64,000 bases of DNA. Source: Okamejei kenojei. Taxonomy: Eukaryota. Position numbers and translations under genes: made by a program. The notes under the pieces were generated by a model, which made no database searches, was not told the origin of the DNA, and was given only the letters and a program-made list of their open reading frames with translations. Below, one piece after another: positions 8,080-21,764 of the stretch. Position 1 is the first letter of the stretch. Every line of letters begins with the position of its first letter. Where the stretch lies: contig CM069136.1 in NCBI GenBank assembly GCA_035221665.1, forward strand, positions 108,562,001 through 108,626,000, written 5' to 3'.

Positions 8080-9660
8080 GATATCACTGATAAGAGGCCC
8101 TTTGGCCCAACTTGCCCACACCGGCCAACATATCCCAGCTACACTCCACCCTCCCCCCTGCATTTGCTTTATACCCTTCCAAACCTGTCCTATTCAAGTA
8201 GAATGGATAAGGGAGAGCTGGTGGATGTGGTGTATTTGGACTTTCATAAAGCCTTTGACAAGGTCCCACACAAGAGATTAGTGTGAAAAATTAGAGCACA
8301 TGGTATTGAGGGTAAGGTATGGTCATGGATAGAGAACTGGCTGGCAGACAGGAAGCAAACAGTAGGAATTAATCGGTCCTTTTCAGAATGGCAGGCAGTG
8401 ACTAGTGGGGTGCCGCAAGGCTCGGTGCTGGGACCCCAGTTATTTACAATATATATTAACGATTTAGATGATGGAATTAAATGTGACGTCTCCAAGTTTG
8501 TGGATGACACAAAGCTGGGTGGCAGTGTGAGCTGCGATGAGGATGCTTTGAGGCTGCAGGGTGAATTGGATAGGTTGGGTGAGTGGGCAGATGCATGGCA
8601 GATGCAGTATAATGTGGATAAATGTGAGATTATCCACATTGGTGACAAGAACAGGAATGCAGGTTATTATCTGAATAGTGCCAAATTAGGAAAAGGTGAG
8701 GTGCAACGAGTCCCGGGTATGCTTGTACATCAGTCACTGAAAGTAAGCATGCAGGTACAACAGGCAGTGAAGAAAGCTAATGGCATGTTGACCTCATTGC
8801 AAGAAGATTTGAGTATAGGAGCAAGGTGGTCCTACTGCAGTTGTACAGGGCCCTGGTGAGACCACACCTGGAGTATTGTGTGCAATTTAGTTCTCCTAAT
8901 TTGAGGAAGGACATTATTGCTATTGAGGGAGTGCGGCATAGGTACACCAGGTTAATTCTCAGAATGGTGGGACTAATATATGATGAAAGAATGTGTTGAC
9001 TGGGCTTGTATTCACTGGAATTAGAGCATAAGAGGGGATCTTATAGAAATATATAACATTCTTGAAGGATTGGACAGGCTACATGCAGGAAAAATGTTAC
9101 CGATGTTTGGGGAGTCCAGAACTAGGGGTCACAGTTTAAGAATAACGGGTAGACTGAGAGATGAGGAAAAACTTCTTCACCCAGAGAGTTGTGAATCTCT
9201 GGAATTCTCTGCCACAGAAGGCAGTGGAGGCCAATTCACTGGATGTTTTCAAGAGAGAGTTAGATTTAGCAAATAGGGCTAAAGGAATCAAGGGATATGG
9301 GGGAAAAGCAGGAACAAGGTAATAATTTTAGATGATTAACCATTATCATTTTGAATGACTGTGCTGGCTGGAAGGGCCGAATGGCCTACTCCTGCACCTA
9401 TTTTCCTATGTTTCTTTGTTTTCTATCCATGTACCTGTCTAACTGTTTCATAAATGCTGTGATTGTCCCAGTCTCAATTACCTTTTCTGGCAGCTTGTTC
9501 CATACACCCACCACCCTTATGTGAAAAGGTTACCCCTCAGATTCCTACTAAATCTTTTCCCCTTCACCTTAAACCTATGTCCTCTGATCTTCGATTCACC
9601 TACTCTGGGCAAGAGACTCTGTGCATCTGCCCGATCTATTCCTCTCATGATTTTATCCAT
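8080..9660 (-). mobile_element. CR1 3' fragment (family C) split by a younger opposite-strand CR1
   Basis: 8080-8194 (...AAACCTGTCCTAT) continues at ~9426 (CCATGTACCTGTCTAAC...); minus ORF 9517-9828 has KIMRGIDR...RGHRFKVKG..RNLRGNLFT. Confidence 0.75.
8195..9425 (+). mobile_element. 5'-truncated CR1 LINE (decayed RT ORF2)
   Basis: [41 protein letters not shown] motifs with stops/frameshifts; TTTCTATG-like tail. Confidence 0.93.
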
Positions 9661-10789: not shown

Positions 10790-13399
10790 ATAACAAAAAG
10801 TCAATGCTGATTAGTGATAACATACATGTAATTCCATGCAGAATAATCATCTTGTCCAGTCACAGCTAAGCAACTGGACCCACAGTGCTGCCTCAGTGTC
10901 ATGAGCATAACCCTTGGTATCGTGAGCCCAGGGCAGGGATGTTCCAATGTTAACATCCCATATCTCTGCGTACCTCCCTGGGGGGTGTCGAGTTTAAGAC
11001 CCTATCTCGAACAGAAGGTGCCCCGATAAATGGATTCTGCTCCTCGCAGCCAAAATGCTGAGAAGGCACTCCAGTATGATTGTCAACCCCATATGGAACT
11101 GAACTTAAGACGTCAGTCATCCGTGTCAACTTAGTTTGGTGTGACAATAGTAAGCCGCAGGAGCGGTCTTCCCAGTCTGCAGGTCAATGACTAGATTAAA
11201 GTACGCAGGGGATGGTTCCATGGTCACGGCTAACAAGCCATTTTGTGCCTGCAATCCATGTAAGGTTCTATCATAATACCCAACATCAGCGGGATCATGG
11301 CTGTATTGGCCAGTCAGGCACTCCGAAATGCCTGAAGCAGAAGCTGAATTAGCAAGACCCGTCTGGTAAGGTAAATGGATGGACACAATGAACATTACCC
11401 CTCAGTGTAGCGAGAAATGCATCCATCGCCACGTACCTTAAATCCTGGCGATTCCACATCCATTCTCATTTTCCTGCTGATATGCCAATGCCAGTGAAGT
11501 TAGGTAAACTATTACCGGATACTTTGACTAGATTGCACCCATGTGATTTACATATAATAGCACCAGAGTGTATCAAGTTAGACTTGAGCATGCAGGCATG
11601 CATATTCTCACAACCTTTATCCACAGAATGCACCTAATGTGAATAGGTAACTCATGCAAACCGCATCCGCCTCCGTAACTAAAGATGGTATATAGTAATA
11701 ATCCATGTTTAACATAGTATCAGTTAGTAATTAACTGACGAGTATTGATGAAGGTTAGTGGGGCAATGCTGAATACAGTTTGTCCACAATGGTGACTTTG
11801 CCAGCTGGGAATAGCCTGTGAGCTTGCTCCTTTGCACGCCGTAAAGCTCTGATGGTGCAGAAGACGCAATAGCACAGCTGACCAATATATATCAATCCCA
11901 GACAATTTATAATTTCAGTTGGTATCAACTTAAATTTACTGGATGGATAAGAATCCAATTCCTGCAGAATGGTTTGTGGCTGATACCGCTGATTAGGCAA
12001 AATACAGTGTTTTACAACATCATCCAGATAGCCCATAAAATAATATCTTAGGTGAGCCCAGTGGAAACTGTTCTCCTGTTGTTAGACAGTATAGCAGTTT
12101 TCTATTCAGAAAGTCTATACTGCATTTGCGAGTTGAACCGGTATCTTTCATAGTGATAATGAACGGCTCGCACTGCGGCCTGTCTTGGAAGCCAACTCGT
12201 CTAGCATAAACAAGTGTAAATTTACCAACTTGTAAATGGTCCACATACCTCATATATCGGAAAAGAACCAGACCCACCTCCCTTCATGGTTATAGGTGGT
12301 CTCATGGTAAGCCCAAGGCTCCTGGCGCGGGTTCTTATTCCGTCCCAATTTTGGAGAGTAGGATTGCTGGGGTATGTGGACCCAATTCCCTGAGGACCGG
12401 TTTGGCCTTGGCCTGAAAGCCTGCGCCCAGTTTTGAAGCTGCCCCCAGCTTCAGTGAAACGCTTGCTGCCGATAGAGGCGTGGGGTGTGTTGCTGTGGTC
12501 CCTTGATAAGCCGGACAGCTTTAATTCTTCATCCGGGTCTTACCTGTTTGGGCAGATTCCTGAAGACAGGATTTGGCGGCTAGACATTGCTGGCCTCACT
12601 TCGACCTACAGATTTGAAATTTAAGGCAGGTCCGATGGCGTTTTTCTGGAAACAGTTCATTTTGAAGTGTGCATAGTACCCCCACATAGCGTTGTTCACT
12701 GCTGGCCCTTTCAGGGACAATATTGCAGGTGTATGGTATTCCACACCGTGAGGTTCCTTCACACTCTGGCCTTCAGGCTTCAGAAGATCTTGATGCGACT
12801 GAATATTCTGAAACCTCACGTTTGTACTCCAGTATGTTCGTCTTCCGCGTAGGCGGTTGGACCTCCCTGCCGTTTTCCGGGTTATCCCCCGGCGGAAATC
12901 CCTCCAGGTGGGTCCTTAATCCGCGGCGCAGAATGCAGGTCCTGGGCGTGGCCTGGTTTTCCTGCAGCCGGGTTTTCCTGCAACCGGGCTCACCCCCGCG
13001 CACTTCTGCCAGCACCTCCCCTCCCGCGGTTCCCCGCAGAATCCATTCCCCGATGGTTTCCCCGACCACAGCCGGGTTCCGCATCCCTCGCGGTCCCTGG
13101 AGACGGGATTCCCCACGAAGTCTGTGGTGGGGTTCCCCCTCCAGCCGGGCATCCCCGCGATTCTCGCAGCCGGGGTAGGGGACGCAATATCTCCAGCAGG
13201 AAACTCTGTGCACAGAGCTTCCTGCAAGGAGAAAAACAGACCTCGAGTTAAGTTGAAAAACTTACCTTCAGGATTCAAGCTTACCGCTGGTGGAGCAGCG
13301 CTTCCACAGCCTGTCGATGCGCAATGCGGTAGACGATATGTCACGCATGCGTGCTGGCGGGGTCTTCACGTAGTCACTCACGTGACTCTGAAGTAAAAT
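10790..13399 (-). mobile_element. Degenerate, internally condensed DIRS1-like element (3'-truncated)
   Basis: Left end TCACGTAGTCACTCACGTGACTCTGAAGTAAAAT shared with the full element. Colinear remnants: gag (LKGPAVNNAMW; NAIGPALN), RT MGYLDD (12019-12036), YVNHMG (11536-11554), VAMDAF (11415-11432), VPDWPIQP (11298-11321), YR RYAEIWDV (10952-10975). Confidence 0.88.
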
Positions 13400-13451
13400 C
13401 TACATTAGAACTGACGCCATTTCAATAGTACTCCAAGAGCCGAACAGCACT

Positions 13452-15266: not shown

Positions 15267-16300
15267 CGCACAGAAGCAAAGTAACCTGCTGTGAAATAGT
15301 CAACACAGAGCCTAGCATATAATGAACAGGTTTCCAGCTGCAATTGAATTCAACTTGTTTGCATTGTTCGAAAGATTTACGAATAATAATTGCCTGTAAG
15401 CTTAGCAGCCCACTGAGGTATTGCACTGTCTGCAATACCTCTTTTCACTAAAATATGATTACATATGAATGCACAAGTAAATCCTTTTCACTTCACATTT
15501 ATTGCTGAGGAAGATTTCATTATTCTGGTGGGCTTTCACAGCGTAACTGTGAGCAATAAGATCCACAAAATAAAAGCCACAGATGCGTTATTATTAAATA
15601 GCTCTGGGAGCCCATTTATGTAGACTTGGTTGTTTAACTGCATGTGGCTGAATGAAATCTGACAGCTGCGTAGTGAAACATTCACATATTTCAACCACAA
15701 AGGCGTCTGTGCCTTTTCAGAATGGTGTTCGCTTGCAATAAGAAGTAGGTTAGCAGCGCTGTCAAAGCTGACAACATGATCAGAGGCACTTATTGATGGT
15801 TCCTTGGTGACGTCTGACAACATCGGGAATCACGATTGCTGTTCCTTTTCCTGAAATTAGTAGAGAAATATGAACGGAATAATTGTCCATGTGTTGTTAT
15901 CTCGGTACGAATTCTCAACTCGTGATAGATGTTCTTTACCTCCGAAGAAGGGTCCCAACCTGAAATGTCGTCCGTCCATTCCCTCCACTGATGCTGAGCT
16001 CCACTAGCACTGATTTTTTTTGCCCAAGGTGTGACTTGTCTCTTGACATTTGGCACGTACTCCCATTTGGGCATGCAATTCTCACTGAACAGACAACAAA
16101 AGCAGTAATGAATCATTAATGGAATTAGTTAGCAGGTCGAGCATTCACACAGTGAAATGGGATACAAATCCGTGCTTTTTCATCTTGAAAGGCGCCCATA
16201 TGGCACACCATTTCCTTAGGAAAATAGAAGAATAGTAAGATTAAACGAGAACTTACCAGTTTGAAGCTTGATCTTTATTTTATGAGGAGTCGAGTTGAGG

Positions 16301-16340
16301 GACTACGTGAATAGAAGCCCGTACAGCCGTTGGTGCGTCA
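16301..16340 (+). repeat. DIRS right inverted terminal repeat
   Basis: GACTACGTGAATAGAAGCCCGTACAGCCGTTGGTGCGTCA is the reverse complement of 20941-20980 (one mismatch). Confidence 0.95.
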
Positions 16341-16448
16341 ATCTTCAAAGCAGCGGAGTGAATTCACAGGTAACAATGACTGAAGTATAATGGTAAGATG
16401 ATAAAACTAGAACTACCAGCTGAGATCTATGAGGGTGGGAGTGGAGGG

Positions 16449-16559
16449 CACGTAGTCCCTCAACTCGACTCCTCATAAAATAAAGATCAAACTTCAAACT
16501 GGTAAGTTCTCATTTAATCTTACTATTTTACTTCAGAGTCACGCGAGTGACTACATGAA
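16449..16559. repeat. DIRS internal complementary region (ICR)
   Basis: 16449-16527 is the inverse of 16231-16309; 16526-16559 is the inverse of 20970-21003; junction TACTATTTTACTTC mimics a circle junction. Confidence 0.93.
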
Positions 16560-16711
16560 GACTTCAAAGCACTGTGATTTCATGCCGCAGACCCAAATCC
16601 GGCGTTCACACTGCATCGATTGACTCAAAACAATCAATAATCCATCAATAATAACATTTGTTCAATGAATAACAGTTTATTTACAAACAAAATCATAACA
16701 ACCCCTCTAAC

Positions 16712-17698
16712 TCAGGGGGAAACTCTAACAGAACTCAAAACAGAATCAGCAAACACCCCCAGCCTTGAAATCGGCTTGTGATAAATCCTCTGAAAGGTCA
16801 GCTCACTGGACCATCCTGCGGCCGCGAGAATATGGTCTATTGGCACGTCCATCGCCCTTGCCGCGGAAGTTGATGCCGCCCTGGTGGAATGAGATTTGAG
16901 TTTATCAGTATCAATTCCAGCACTTGCCAGGATCTGCTTTAGCCACCTTGAAATTGTTTGCACCGACACCTTACTGTGTGGTTTTTTGTGACTAATAAAT
17001 AAAGCCGACTCTGTTCCTCTTAGAGCTTTAGTAATCTCAATGTAACGAGATAAACGTGAGACTACACACAAGCTATCATCTGCGGGGTATGCTGAAAACA
17101 CAATCTTACATCCTGTCATGCCTCTTCTATTATGTTTAAGCAAATCATAGACATAAAATATAATGGCATCTGCCGATACATGCATTACATCTAGCCGTAG
17201 CTTTTGCAACGTTTGTACACGTTGAGCTGAAACCAACGCCATAAGCATGACCACCTTCATAGTTAATTTGGCTATACATAGGGTTGTAACTGGAGCCCAT
17301 TGGCAAAGAAACATAAGAACCTCACTCACATTCCAAATCCCAGCATATCTGGGTTTAGGAGGATTAGAATTGAAAACTCCCTTCATGAATCGTGAAACTA
17401 ACGGATGTGTCCCTACTGTATGCAATTCTGAATTCATGGGTAAATAAGAAGACAGAGCACTTCTGACTGAATTGATCGCACTGTAACTTAATTTTTGGTC
17501 GAAATAAAGAGTTGACAAAAACTCCAATACATCTGTGATCCCTGCAGTGTGATATATAATATTCTGCTGTAGGCAGAATTGCTCCCACTTCCTTATATAG
17601 GTGATATATTGCTGCTGTGTACTATCCCTGCAGGCCAACGTGAGAATATCCACAGTCCGATGAGACAGTCCTCTCCCCAGGTATGGCCTCCTTAAAAT
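16712..17698 (-). CDS. DIRS tyrosine recombinase (YR)
   Basis: Open frame with SAM-like N-terminus (LSYSAINSVRSALS) and catalytic R (SAQR), K (LLKH), HSTR, AGW, Y (FQRIYHK); no ATG at the frame start, which begins just after TTAATTTTCAG. Confidence 0.93.
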   Translation of the reverse strand: MLRRPYLGRGLSHRTVDILTLACRDSTQQQYITYIRKWEQFCLQQNIIYHTAGITDVLEFLSTLYFDQKLSYSAINSVRSALSSYLPMNSELHTVGTHPLVSRFMKGVFNSNPPKPRYAGIWNVSEVLMFLCQWAPVTTLCIAKLTMKVVMLMALVSAQRVQTLQKLRLDVMHVSADAIIFYVYDLLKHNRRGMTGCKIVFSAYPADDSLCVVSRLSRYIEITKALRGTESALFISHKKPHSKVSVQTISRWLKQILASAGIDTDKLKSHSTRAASTSAARAMDVPIDHILAAAGWSSELTFQRIYHKPISRLGVFADSVLSSVRVSP

Positions 17699-18645
17699 CT
17701 GAAAATTAACAGATCAATACGATCATGTAAAGGATGTTGATCCCCAGTTACTGGATTCACCAGTAGATTTTTATTCTTGGGAATAAGCATGTGAGGCTCC
17801 CTAGCCATTTGTAATACAACAGGAAACCATGCTTGTGTAGGCCAATCTGGCACTACCAATACCCCTGAAGCGGAGTCCTCCTTGATCTTTTGCAAACATC
17901 TGCTGATGAGACAGAATGGAGGAAATACATACACAAACATTCCTCCCCAATGCAGCGAGAACGCATCCACTGCTACTGCCCCAGGATCTGGTTCCCACGA
18001 AACATATCTGGGTAACTGATGATTTAATCTAGATGCAAACAAGTCAATATCTGGCAATCCATACAGAACAATCATTTGGTTAAATACATCCTGATTTAAC
18101 ATCCATTCAATGTTGTCATTAAACTGACGTGACCTAGTGTCAGCTACAGTGTTGAATCTTCCTGGCAAATAAAGTGCTGAAAGCCAGATATTTTGGTCAA
18201 TACACCAGCTCCAAATCTGGTTAGCCAGTCTATCACAAAACTGTGACTTGACTCCACCCATGTGGTTTACATATGCCACTGCTGTGGTGCTGTCAATCTG
18301 AACCTGCACATGCAAGTCCCTCCTGGTAGAACAATAAGCTTTAAGCCCATACCAGGTTCCCAACAACTCTAAATAATTAATCCCTCTTAATTGAAGAAGG
18401 GATGTCTCATCAACATTCCATCTGCCTCCACAACTAGAAGACATATCTGTTGCACCCCACCCCAGTGCACTTACATCAGTCTGTAATATCATTGAAGGGG
18501 GTTCCACCAAAAACTTCCTAAAACGTTTTGAAACATGTACTATCCACCATTGTATGTCAGAAATTGCCCCAGCTGACAACTGCATAGGCCTATCAAAATG
18601 GCCCCTTTGTATTCTCAGTGCCTGTTTCTTTGATCGTTGTAAATT
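17692..18645 (-). CDS. DIRS pol C-terminal part: RNase H plus N6-adenine methyltransferase-like domain
   Basis: LQTDVS..GWG, INYLEL, IDSTTAVAYVNHMGG, NTVADTRSR (RNase H); IDLFAS, DAFSLHW, YVFPPF, VVPDWPTQAWFP (MT-like). Joined to RT by a 1-nt frameshift near 18643. Confidence 0.9.
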   Translation of the reverse strand, partial: NLQRSKKQALRIQRGHFDRPMQLSAGAISDIQWWIVHVSKRFRKFLVEPPSMILQTDVSALGWGATDMSSSCGGRWNVDETSLLQLRGINYLELLGTWYGLKAYCSTRRDLHVQVQIDSTTAVAYVNHMGGVKSQFCDRLANQIWSWCIDQNIWLSALYLPGRFNTVADTRSRQFNDNIEWMLNQDVFNQMIVLYGLPDIDLFASRLNHQLPRYVSWEPDPGAVAVDAFSLHWGGMFVYVFPPFCLISRCLQKIKEDSASGVLVVPDWPTQAWFPVVLQMAREPHMLIPKNKNLLVNPVTGDQHPLHDRIDLLIFRF

Positions 18646-19591
18646 GTTGATAATGTAGAGGACCATACTGCACAGCTGGAAATGCTGCAACAAACTTCCC
18701 AATTAACCTGGCTACTTGTCTAATTGAAGGCCGTTGTTCTCCAACGAGATTAACACAGTCCTCAATTGACTGATCCAATTTATCCCTGGGCAAAGTTACC
18801 AACATTTGATTTGAATTAATGGTAAATCCCAGATAATCAATAATTTGGACTGGTGATAATTTAGATTTATCTGGGTGAACAACAAATCCCAATTGTTCAA
18901 AAGTGAATTTAACAACCAAAACTGATGACTGAGCTTCAGCATGAGTCTTTCCAACAATCAAAATATCATCTAAATAGGCCATTACCACATGCCTCTGAGG
19001 TCTGAGTAATGCTAACACAGGTTTTACCAATTTAGTAAATAGTCTAGGAGCTGAAGTTAATCCATTAGGCAATGCCCTGAATTGCCACAACTGAGTCATC
19101 CAAATAAATTTCAAATATCTTCTATCATCACCATGAATAGATACTGAGTAATACGCATCCTTTAAATCAATGGTTGCCATACAACACCCTTTGGACACTA
19201 GATGTTTGGCCATGGTAAAGGTTTCCAGTTTGAAATGCCTATAACAAACAAATTTGTTCAAACTCGATAAATCCAGAATAATTCTACATCCCCCAGACTT
19301 TTTAGATCTGGGAAATATACTTGACACAAATTGTCGACTTTGATAGACAGAAGGCTCAATTACCCCTTTCTTATATAACGACTGAATCTCTGCTTGAATA
19401 AGCACATTTTCCTCATCTGAAAATATAAGTTTTCGACTAGGAGCATGTTGATTAGGTAGACTGTCCTTAGAGTAAAATTCAATTTTCACCCCTTCAATAC
19501 TGCTAAGTATGAACGAATCTGATGTCAACTGCTGCCATTGTTTGAGAAACAATTTTAACCTTCCCCCAATTTCAACAGGAACATTAGTTAA
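18640..19591 (-). CDS. DIRS pol N-terminal part: reverse transcriptase
   Basis: IGGRLKLFLKQW, RIILDLSSLN, IDLKDAYYSV, LPNGLTSAPRLFTK, AYLDD, YLGF; frame continues into RNase H across a 1-nt insertion (HYQQF to HYQQLQRSK). Confidence 0.92.
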
Positions 19592-20803
19592 TTAATTGTC
19601 TGTGAATGTTATATTCCTTACCTGCATCTGCCCTTGCAGACCTTGTTGTCCTCGACCTCTTGTAGAGAAAGGCACCTTCCCCTTCATACTGGCAGCCTGC
19701 CAGTTCCGATATTGAAGACCTGAACTGCTCGTTCCTTCTCCTGCATCCACACGAGTGCCTTTCCGATACGGATAAAACCTTTTGCCTTGCTTGCCAGCCG
19801 GCTTAATGAGGGCCATGGTTTTAACATCTTCATGACAGTCTTTTACCCTTTTTGCAAGGTTACCTCCAAACAACAGATTTTGTGGTGGTACACTGGTCGG
19901 TTTGCACAAATTCGCCAAGTTCGGATTAATCACTGGCCTAATAGCGGCCCTCCTGATATTATTAATTTCAAAAAATGCACTACAAAGGAATCCAAGTGCG
20001 TCCTGGTGTGCTTCAACCATATTGCTTGTATCAATAACTTTCACCACAGCTGTAACACCTGCTGACAACAGTTTAAGCACTTTTGGAAACTTCATCTCCT
20101 GGGCCCTAGCAGGCATACCCATCTGTGACCACATTTGGTGATTAACCACCGGTGCCTTCAGGAGATCACAATTAATAGGAGCTTCATAGTTTTTTGCCAC
20201 TTCATCCATAGCTAGCTCCTGTAACTGGTGGGAGAGCATATACTGAATTGCTTCGGCCAATTCTACATCAATCGCCTCTCCAGCCTCTCTACACTCAGCA
20301 AACTTCCCAGCAATGTTCGGAATTACCTCCAACCGAACTCCTTTACTGCTCTCCCCCAGCATAGAATCAGTTTCAGCGAACTGCACTGATGAAACATCCT
20401 CCTCACAGGCAGGATAGTCCTGCAGCCCTGAAACAGGTGCTGCTAGCACAAGCTCTCCATCGGCCTGGCTTGGGCACCACTCCTCCTCACGGAGCTGGTC
20501 CCTGTCGAGCATTCTTTGCAATAAAGTCTCGACCTGGGAGAGCCGTGAGCAAACGGACTCTCCTATGGAGGGTATAACCTCCAGGCCCGACTCAGGGTCC
20601 ACGGGCCTATCAGACTTGCCAGTGGCCTTCCGCCCTGCTGGCAAGCCTCCACTGCTCACAGGCAGTGGGTCCGCAACCACTGGCTGTGTAGCCAGCACCG
20701 GACCAGGTGTACCAGACGGGCCTCCATCAACAACACTCTCCTGGTCACTTTCCTTCCTACCTCCGGAGCGCCTCGCCGACACCTTCTTCATTTTCTGCAA
20801 CAT
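19592..20803 (-). CDS. DIRS ORF1 gag-like protein
   Basis: Long open frame at the gag position; ATG at 20803 (MLQKMKK) follows an acceptor-like TTCTCTTGTAG; P.N...L.AP.VN..MW and LLFGGNL motifs; basic C-terminus. Confidence 0.8.
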   Translation of the reverse strand: MLQKMKKVSARRSGGRKESDQESVVDGGPSGTPGPVLATQPVVADPLPVSSGGLPAGRKATGKSDRPVDPESGLEVIPSIGESVCSRLSQVETLLQRMLDRDQLREEEWCPSQADGELVLAAPVSGLQDYPACEEDVSSVQFAETDSMLGESSKGVRLEVIPNIAGKFAECREAGEAIDVELAEAIQYMLSHQLQELAMDEVAKNYEAPINCDLLKAPVVNHQMWSQMGMPARAQEMKFPKVLKLLSAGVTAVVKVIDTSNMVEAHQDALGFLCSAFFEINNIRRAAIRPVINPNLANLCKPTSVPPQNLLFGGNLAKRVKDCHEDVKTMALIKPAGKQGKRFYPYRKGTRVDAGEGTSSSGLQYRNWQAASMKGKVPFSTRGRGQQGLQGQMQVRNITFTDN

Positions 20804-20940
20804 TTCTACAAGAGAACTCCAACCGCCGCAGAAAATGAGCTCTGGAAAAAATTTAAAAAACTTACCTCCGTTTTTAAACTTACCGCTTGGAGGAGCGCTG
20901 CCGCTCCAACCGGCCGACTGCACCAATGCGTCTGACGTCA

Positions 20941-20980
20941 TGACGCACCAACGGCTGTACGGGGTTCTATTCACGTAGTC
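20941..20980 (-). repeat. DIRS left inverted terminal repeat
   Basis: Reverse complement of 16301-16340. Confidence 0.95.
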
Positions 20981-21764
20981 ACTCACGTGACTCCGAAGTA
21001 AAATTAAAGTTAATTAATGAGAACATTTTTGATGGGAATGAAAAGCAATGCAGAAGCAAAACACCTTTAATTTTATCAGAAATGTGATATGTTCCATGTG
21101 TTATATAAAATTAGTCAATCCCTAATGTGATGTTATTACATCTTCTAATCACCTGGGAATATGAGATATCAAATCTCCACAATACAGACAACCTACTGGT
21201 GTTCATTAAAGCCAGAATCATTCCTCAAATGTTTGATAACAACTCAATTTTTAAAAAGCCTGCCAAATTTGTTTCACCAAAGCTTCTTTGATCCGACCTT
21301 GTAAGATTAATTGGCTGTGTGAATTCAGATATGAGAGAGAGACTGGACTTGCATTTTATAGTCCTTTATTTATTTTCTCCTTCTGCAAGTTCTGAATATT
21401 TGTCGTTTAAGGAATTACCTGGAGCATGTGATGAGAGCAAATCTTACAGGTTTTGTATGCAAAAAACTGAAAAGTAAAAAAAAACTGAATTGTAACGACA
21501 CAGAACTGTGGAGATATGTACAGTGTATACAGTGCAACACAGGCCCAACTTGTCATTGTCAGTAGTTAATAAGCCTTCAACATCCACCTTCCTCTTTCCC
21601 ATTACCAAGTCTTTCTATATCATTGTCCCTGATTTATTTGTTCAGCTTCTCCCCAGGCCCCCATCTCAGCTCTTCACCCCATGAAGGAATGAGTTCCACA
21701 TTCTCACTGCTTTGAGTAAAGAACCACACATTGAATTTTATAGAATCGTAGTAACTGATGCTTT

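Follow-up and report, generated by a model that had tools for sequence, protein, structure and literature searches.

A predicted optional intron spanning pol may join Gag to the tyrosine recombinase of a DIRS1-like retrotransposon in Okamejei kenojei

The window analysed here is a stretch of 64,000 nucleotides (nt) of Okamejei kenojei DNA (GenBank assembly GCA_035221665.1, contig CM069136.1, positions 108,562,001 to 108,626,000 of the forward strand). It contains a full-length DIRS1-like retrotransposon of about 4.77 kb (16231..21004, ATT at each end) which, like all its parts and the second element described below, lies on the minus strand. As judged from its sequence, this element probably produces its tyrosine recombinase (YR) from a spliced RNA lacking pol. 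Splicing from 19621 to 17699 would remove the reverse transcriptase (RT), RNase H and most of the methyltransferase (MT) and join Gag to YR in a protein of about 722 amino acids (aa); unspliced RNA would yield Gag-Pol and serve as genomic RNA. A first-pass annotation of the window had proposed such an optional intron as a switch between pol and recombinase. Sequence comparison and matching RefSeq models support the proposal well, although no RNA junction was seen.

Predicted splice sites around pol

The predicted 5' splice site (19616..19627) reads ATG CAG/GTAAGG, with the ATG at 19627-19625 and the first intron base at 19621. Commonly used rules were applied for donors (MAG/GTRAGT), branch points and slippery heptamers, and splice sites were scored by a simple count of consensus matches. 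The donor agrees with the consensus at eight of nine positions and is in phase 0 relative to the gag ATG at 20803, 394 codons upstream. The predicted 3' splice site (17699..17732) consists of a branch-point-like TTTAC at -30 (A at 17728), a pyrimidine-rich tract and CAG. Its acceptor, CTGTTAATTTTCAG/ATT (TTTTCAG/ATT), ends at 17699, and the exon starts at 17698. The 50 nt before the acceptor are free of further AG, and 9 of 15 positions are pyrimidines in the family; this is a modest tract, and the branch point was picked out by eye. Between the two sites lies the predicted intron of 1,923 nt (17699..19621), which contains RT, RNase H and almost the whole MT. The YR frame (16712..17698, 328 codons) opens only five codons upstream of the acceptor and contains no Met before residue 88. 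The predicted spliced product is thus a Gag-YR protein of 394 + 328 = 722 aa. Donor, acceptor, phase and fusion had been read in the same way in the first-pass annotation and stand as described there. It is likely that the spliceosome uses both sites.

The donor had also been placed at the end of gag, and this part had to be corrected. The stop at 19594-19592 is private to this copy: 27 of the 30 family copies covering the donor have no stop in the 15 codons past it, and in one copy no stop interrupts the 409 codons upstream or the 643 codons downstream of the donor. Gag and pol form a single frame in this family, and the gag stop of this copy is a lesion, as is one extra base near 18641 that shifts the pol frame. 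Of three other source-genome families examined, two have the same single frame and the third has a slippery site. With a single gag-pol frame, the choice would be between Gag-Pol and Gag-YR.

The family is abundant in the source genome: a first look gave 2,428 candidates, and a 26-base acceptor motif has 2,255 exact matches. Since TTG precedes the CAG in 2,252 of these 2,255 matches, no subfamily bearing an ATG, and hence an upstream in-frame start for YR, is apparent. The analysis included 39 further family copies, with 92-95% identity to the one in the window. Of their acceptors, 38 read TTGCAG and one TTGCAA, and the donor GT is kept in 27 of the 30 copies that cover it. Such conservation within the family was rejected as evidence, because the copies are near-identical and were chosen by similarity to the acceptor region. 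Conservation of sites and phase was instead judged across families, where it exceeds chance.

Splice signals and reading frames in related families

Two properties of the acceptor confound its reading as a splice site: its CAG doubles as part of Cys-Arg (TGC AGA) in the MT frame, a point against splicing, and TTG CAG could act as a near-cognate start. The comparison was aimed at separating a splice signal from both. It covered 80 metagenome loci and 40 more loci of the source genome; 116 of 122 sequences were grouped into 47 families at 80% DNA identity, and six whose YR start was missing or broken (L146, L150, L155, L157, L159 and L162) were left out. Relatives on metagenome contigs, at about 37-50% YR identity, carry the same splice design. 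The design is therefore wider than the DIRS lineage to which it had first been ascribed.

Acceptor-like sites followed the extent of the recombinase frame. Fifteen families have a recombinase frame that is closed within 23 codons upstream; YAG stands at the recombinase start in 13 of them, versus 3 of 31 families with a longer frame. The two exceptions among the closed-frame families look damaged, and all 13 families of the clade to which this element belongs have the site. Pyrimidines at this place number 9.3 of 15 in closed-frame and 6.9 of 15 in longer-frame families. Protein conservation does not force the AG, because in longer-frame families the position following the conserved Cys is free to vary.

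Longer-frame families carry a YAG about 70 codons further upstream, in 29 of 30 that could be scored, at one of two positions: site 1, directly after an FPPF motif, or site 2, four codons further on. Site 1 alone is present in 17 families, site 2 alone in 11, both in one and neither in one, and all are in phase save in the frameshifted L154. The Arg codon at site 2 has the form Y-AGR in 11/11 families without site 1 versus 1/11 with it, and where site 1 is TAG the recombinase frame opens exactly there. Zones of at least 25 nt free of AG precede the predicted acceptors in 8/13 (recombinase start), 16/18 (site 1) and 10/11 (site 2) families, together 34/42, versus 17% of 1,561 background YAG. 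The only family with a 702-codon overlapping frame lacks these acceptors and any strong phase-0 donor.

Donors were scored in the 28 families whose contig includes the RT start. A phase-0 donor matching MAG/GTRAGT at seven or more of nine positions, 15-110 nt before the RT start (GGRL motif), was found in 21 of them; the background was 3.9% of 532 pol windows, and phase 1 was seen in no family and phase 2 in seven. The family of this element counts as a miss, as its representative has a mutated donor; the remaining misses are two sister families, three metagenome families and one long-overlap element. Within the donor stretch, Val-Ser/Arg pairs use AGN codons in 21/27 cases versus 22/107 in pol. 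Taken alone, neither the Val codon nor the preceding codon is significantly biased. Given the AGN bias and the varying distance to RT, a protein motif fails to explain the donor. Six clade families (L091, L092, L097, L101, L109 and L182) have tandem donors four bases apart before RT, the second in phase 2.

Slippery heptamers served as a control for frameshifting. Of 25 gag/pol overlaps, 22 contain an in-frame heptamer, mostly TTTTTTA or AAAAAAC, located 100-235 nt upstream of the RT start (L091-L168 and the L180 family), and gag of the relatives with such a site stops at or before the donor region. The same scan of the pol/recombinase overlap gave 0/13 for clade families and 4/30 for others. 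This distribution suggests that in most relatives, where gag is in another frame, a -1 shift before the donor would reach the pol frame, and splicing would then select Pol or recombinase. The slippery site has no counterpart in three of the four source-genome families, which have the single gag-pol frame; for the family of this element, no shift step would be needed. By analogy with Gag-Pol, the Gag fusion would bring the recombinase into the particle.

Four RefSeq proteins show joins of the expected kind, all of them model predictions. XP_072032829.1 and XP_072043497.1 (Amphiura filiformis) consist of gag plus a transframe peptide joined to YR without RT; the first part ends on a Glu aligned with the L091 donor, and the second starts on the Ile after the L091 acceptor. 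XP_068753892.1 and XP_069107779.1 (Montipora and Argopecten models) seem to pass into the YR frame 72 codons upstream of the core, as far away as site 1; in a second Argopecten isoform the entry comes three codons later. The balance of these observations tilts towards a more general view: short-overlap DIRS1-like elements across animals would keep pol as one optional intron, with Gag, or Gag plus a frameshift peptide, ending in RT-RNase H-MT or, once spliced, in recombinase. The acceptor would have moved among three positions in the MT gene, partly by way of synonymous codons.

A second, decayed DIRS element (10805..13400) has the donor-like GAG/GTGGGT (12277) and the acceptor-like CTGCAG/ (11177) at places matching those of the first. 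Both had been cited in support of splicing. Their positions hold, but the ATG of this element is in phase 1 to its donor and its family is decayed, so that it lends weak support. No gag, RT or MT match was obtained by tblastn in 20 copies of that family (L070-L089), which has at least 40 copies, 91-95% alike and with almost no coding signal left.

Alternative explanations and points against splicing

Recombinase could be made without splicing, starting at the near-cognate TTG, or at ATG in relatives, two or three codons upstream of the conserved part, through re-initiation following termination at the pol stop or through an internal promoter. The near-constant TTG of the family fits this view, as does the pol stop two codons beyond the site in all four source-genome families. 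An ATG is found at -2 in 15/27 families outside the clade and at -3 in 2/13 clade families, and 14 database proteins start with MQ or MLQ at this place, the start codon itself not being visible. However, ATG at -2 is missing from all 13 clade families, even though most could gain one by a synonymous change in MT; the base concerned is a pyrimidine in all 13 and A in the 15 others just mentioned. A near-cognate start also leaves the phase-0 donors, the mutually exclusive upstream YAG sites and the AG-free zones unexplained, and we consider it unlikely.

It is quite unlikely that the acceptor is used with another donor to yield a short recombinase mRNA, in the manner of retroviral env. Candidates are two strong donor-like sites in the leader (20860..20886, first intron bases 20883 and 20865). 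Leader donors score 7-9 of 9 in all four source-genome families and in the second element, and in two families they are stronger than the internal donor. The leader ATG, however, is in phase 2 to the first leader donor in 28 of 34 sequences and in phase 1 in this copy, and the acceptor is in phase 0; the L195 leader has no ATG before its donor at all. Paired GTAAGT donors were not found in 15 metagenome relatives with a locatable leader. Without an upstream start, moreover, beginning at the first in-frame Met would cost YR 87 conserved residues.

The leader donors are of the GTAAGT type and lie just inside the left repeat (20860-20886; also in L172, L180 and L195, and at about 13262-13287 in the second element); they are paired in three of four families. 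Nearby acceptor-like sites are less than 50 nt away, a distance too small for an ordinary intron. One may speculate that they bind U1 and so protect full-length RNA.

A different product of the same splice, a 330-aa MQ-YR protein starting at ATG 19627, had been offered next to the fusion and is very unlikely. The ATG is present in all 30 copies covering the donor, but it lies 1.2 kb inside the open gag-pol frame as an internal Gag-Pol codon with many ATGs upstream, and no transcript start is known near it. Most relatives lack an in-frame ATG right at the donor, and that of the second element is out of phase. Least credible is a programmed -1 frameshift from pol into YR giving one Gag-Pol-YR polyprotein, as proposed for Ngaro: YR is indeed in the -1 frame and overlaps the end of pol, but the overlap before the conserved part of YR is only five codons in this element, and slippery heptamers are as rare there, relative to gag/pol overlaps, as the scan above indicates.

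Several observations weigh against splicing itself. (i) No junction read was seen. The 17699-19621 joint was absent from the 15 joints listed for four runs guessed to be RNA; two of these are probably DNA, and the result is no evidence either way. (ii) The supporting RefSeq joins are predictions, and other NCBI models join pol to YR (P0001-P0005, P0069). (iii) An exact pattern for an intron-less genomic copy had 0 matches, versus 2,255 for the acceptor motif. Spliced RNA would retain both inverted terminal repeats (ITRs) and the internal complementary region (ICR), so intron-less copies are conceivable. The RT of DIRS-1 can act in trans (PMC7192593). The lack of such copies would require a copying signal inside pol, or rare splicing. 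(iv) Internally deleted family copies exist with break points elsewhere; an all-against-all comparison of the 122 sequences likewise placed insertions and deletions elsewhere and revealed no pol-skipping joint at the predicted sites. (v) Site 1 sits on the pyrimidine-rich FPPF motif, two clade families have the in-frame ATG three codons before the site mentioned above, and two of four source-genome families have only weak donors (AG/GTA, 5/9). (vi) The single gag-pol frame leaves free Gag without a clear source.

One locus, L094, was considered as a spliced copy, as its pol is mostly deleted and its RT start is in frame with YR. It was rejected because the donor is kept, which indicates a DNA deletion.

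A further point against concerns the number of independent events. In a quick maximum-likelihood tree of 44 recombinase rows (L154 was dropped for frameshifts; L094 and L156 were not labelled), all 13 downstream-acceptor families group in a single clade (SH-aLRT 99) and represent one evolutionary event, so that P values for the acceptor contrast overstate the case. The second upstream site needs four changes on this tree, of which well-supported branches force only one. The case for splicing as the route to Gag-YR rests on the agreement of several separate features.

With respect to free Gag, the FPPF motif of this element is accompanied by an upstream phase-0 CAG (17897..17925, the CAG ending at 17900) at the acceptor position of many relatives. 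This CAG is followed by ATG, 32 open codons and a stop (17801-17900), an arrangement kept in 33 of 36 family sequences. Use of an acceptor at 17900 could supply Gag with a short tail; two single-frame sister families lack the upstream CAG, which weighs against this source.

Structure of the element and comparison with known systems

The element is DIRS1-like, as it has a YR gene, RT, ITRs with an ICR, and NTT ends. NTT ends are a feature of DIRS1-like elements (PMC3266345), and ATT is found here at 21004 and 16231. The left terminal repeat (20941..21004) pairs through 20941-20985 with the right ITR and through 20970-21004 with the ICR (16449..16559); the right ITR and right extension occupy 16226..16340. 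Three inverted pairs of 84, 45 and 35 nt were detected, the ICR being complementary to both ends.

The gag part, the predicted first coding exon (19622..20803, 394 codons), has no Pfam match; the frame at the gag position comprises 403 codons and has tblastn matches at the same place in relatives. A database protein search for Gag-YR proteins with this frame as query returned 2,955 candidates, none of which scored. RT (18593..19591) matches PF00078 (E 1.1e-20). The RNase H-like and MT part (17692..18702) ends two codons past the acceptor; its matches to PF05869 (E 0.004) and PF12237 (E 0.005) are below the curated cut-off and no RNase H family was matched, but by blastp the region strongly matches its counterpart in other DIRS proteins. 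YR matches PF00589 (E 3.3e-9, above cut-off) and PF13495 (E 7.6e-6). By identity, the top database protein for YR comes from Leucoraja erinacea (72% across half the length), as would be expected for a cartilaginous fish. The viral contigs searched contained no relative.

A large subfamily (L032, L038-L041 and others) lacks about 110 nt of late gag (19669-19780 of the window), and its copies have frameshifts in common, at the RT start and around YR codon 69 (17490), so that it seems to have spread without intact genes. L119 and near-identical loci contain the element twice in inverted orientation, with mirror-image tblastn matches, either as an assembly artefact or as a head-to-head pair. Elsewhere in the window, 8287-8859 and the repeats D5 and D6 contain an RT-like frame that recurs several times within the window and is presumably of the CR1 type of long interspersed elements.

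The expression of DIRS recombinase is an open question in the literature surveyed, where frameshifting in Ngaro was the only proposal met. A literature search based on titles and abstract openings found no natural splice that skips pol in DIRS elements; Goodwin and Poulter 2001/2004, Poulter and Goodwin 2005 and Repbase entries were outside its coverage and could describe one. The available text of PMC3266345 has no occurrence of 'splic', 'intron' or 'translat', and that of PMC9210276 none of 'splic'; the splicing mentioned in PMC7192593 concerns an engineered marker intron. The pol-skipping splice is likely real and, for this known family of elements, a means of expression that seems not to have been described. 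If so, it would explain how a DIRS recombinase without ATG is made and packaged. The actual recombinase would be a Gag fusion, which is relevant to reconstituting DIRS integration, and gene models joining pol to YR would give the wrong product. Host splicing would then be a control point of a very abundant repeat (more than 2,200 exact motif matches in the genome).

Compared with the DIRS1-like elements of Piednoel et al. 2011 (PMC3266345), the element has the same RT, YR, ITRs, ICR and ATT ends, together with putative gag and RNase H-MT parts, and it lacks a long overlap of open reading frames, as do half of the 28 elements in that study. It differs in its single gag-pol frame and in a YR without start codon that is predicted to be reached by splicing. 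With Ngaro, for which Poulter and Butler 2015 proposed frameshifting to express YR (quoted in PMC13003380), it shares the short overlap between the end of pol and the start of YR in the -1 frame, but splice signals take the place of a slippery site. Splicing as a switch of retroelement expression is known from Ty1/Copia elements such as EVD of Arabidopsis (Oberlin et al. 2017, PMC5580714). Common to both would be one transcript, an optional intron, conserved sites and a protein ratio set in this way; in Copia, however, splicing gives a short Gag-only RNA with early termination, whereas here the whole of pol would be removed, leaving Gag fused to the integration enzyme. Foamy virus pol (PMC7828637) and retroviral env likewise depend on a spliced subgenomic RNA and a suboptimal site for expression of the gene. 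The spliced RNA of foamy viruses encodes a separate protein without Gag, whereas in the element described here one and the same Gag would end in either RT or recombinase.

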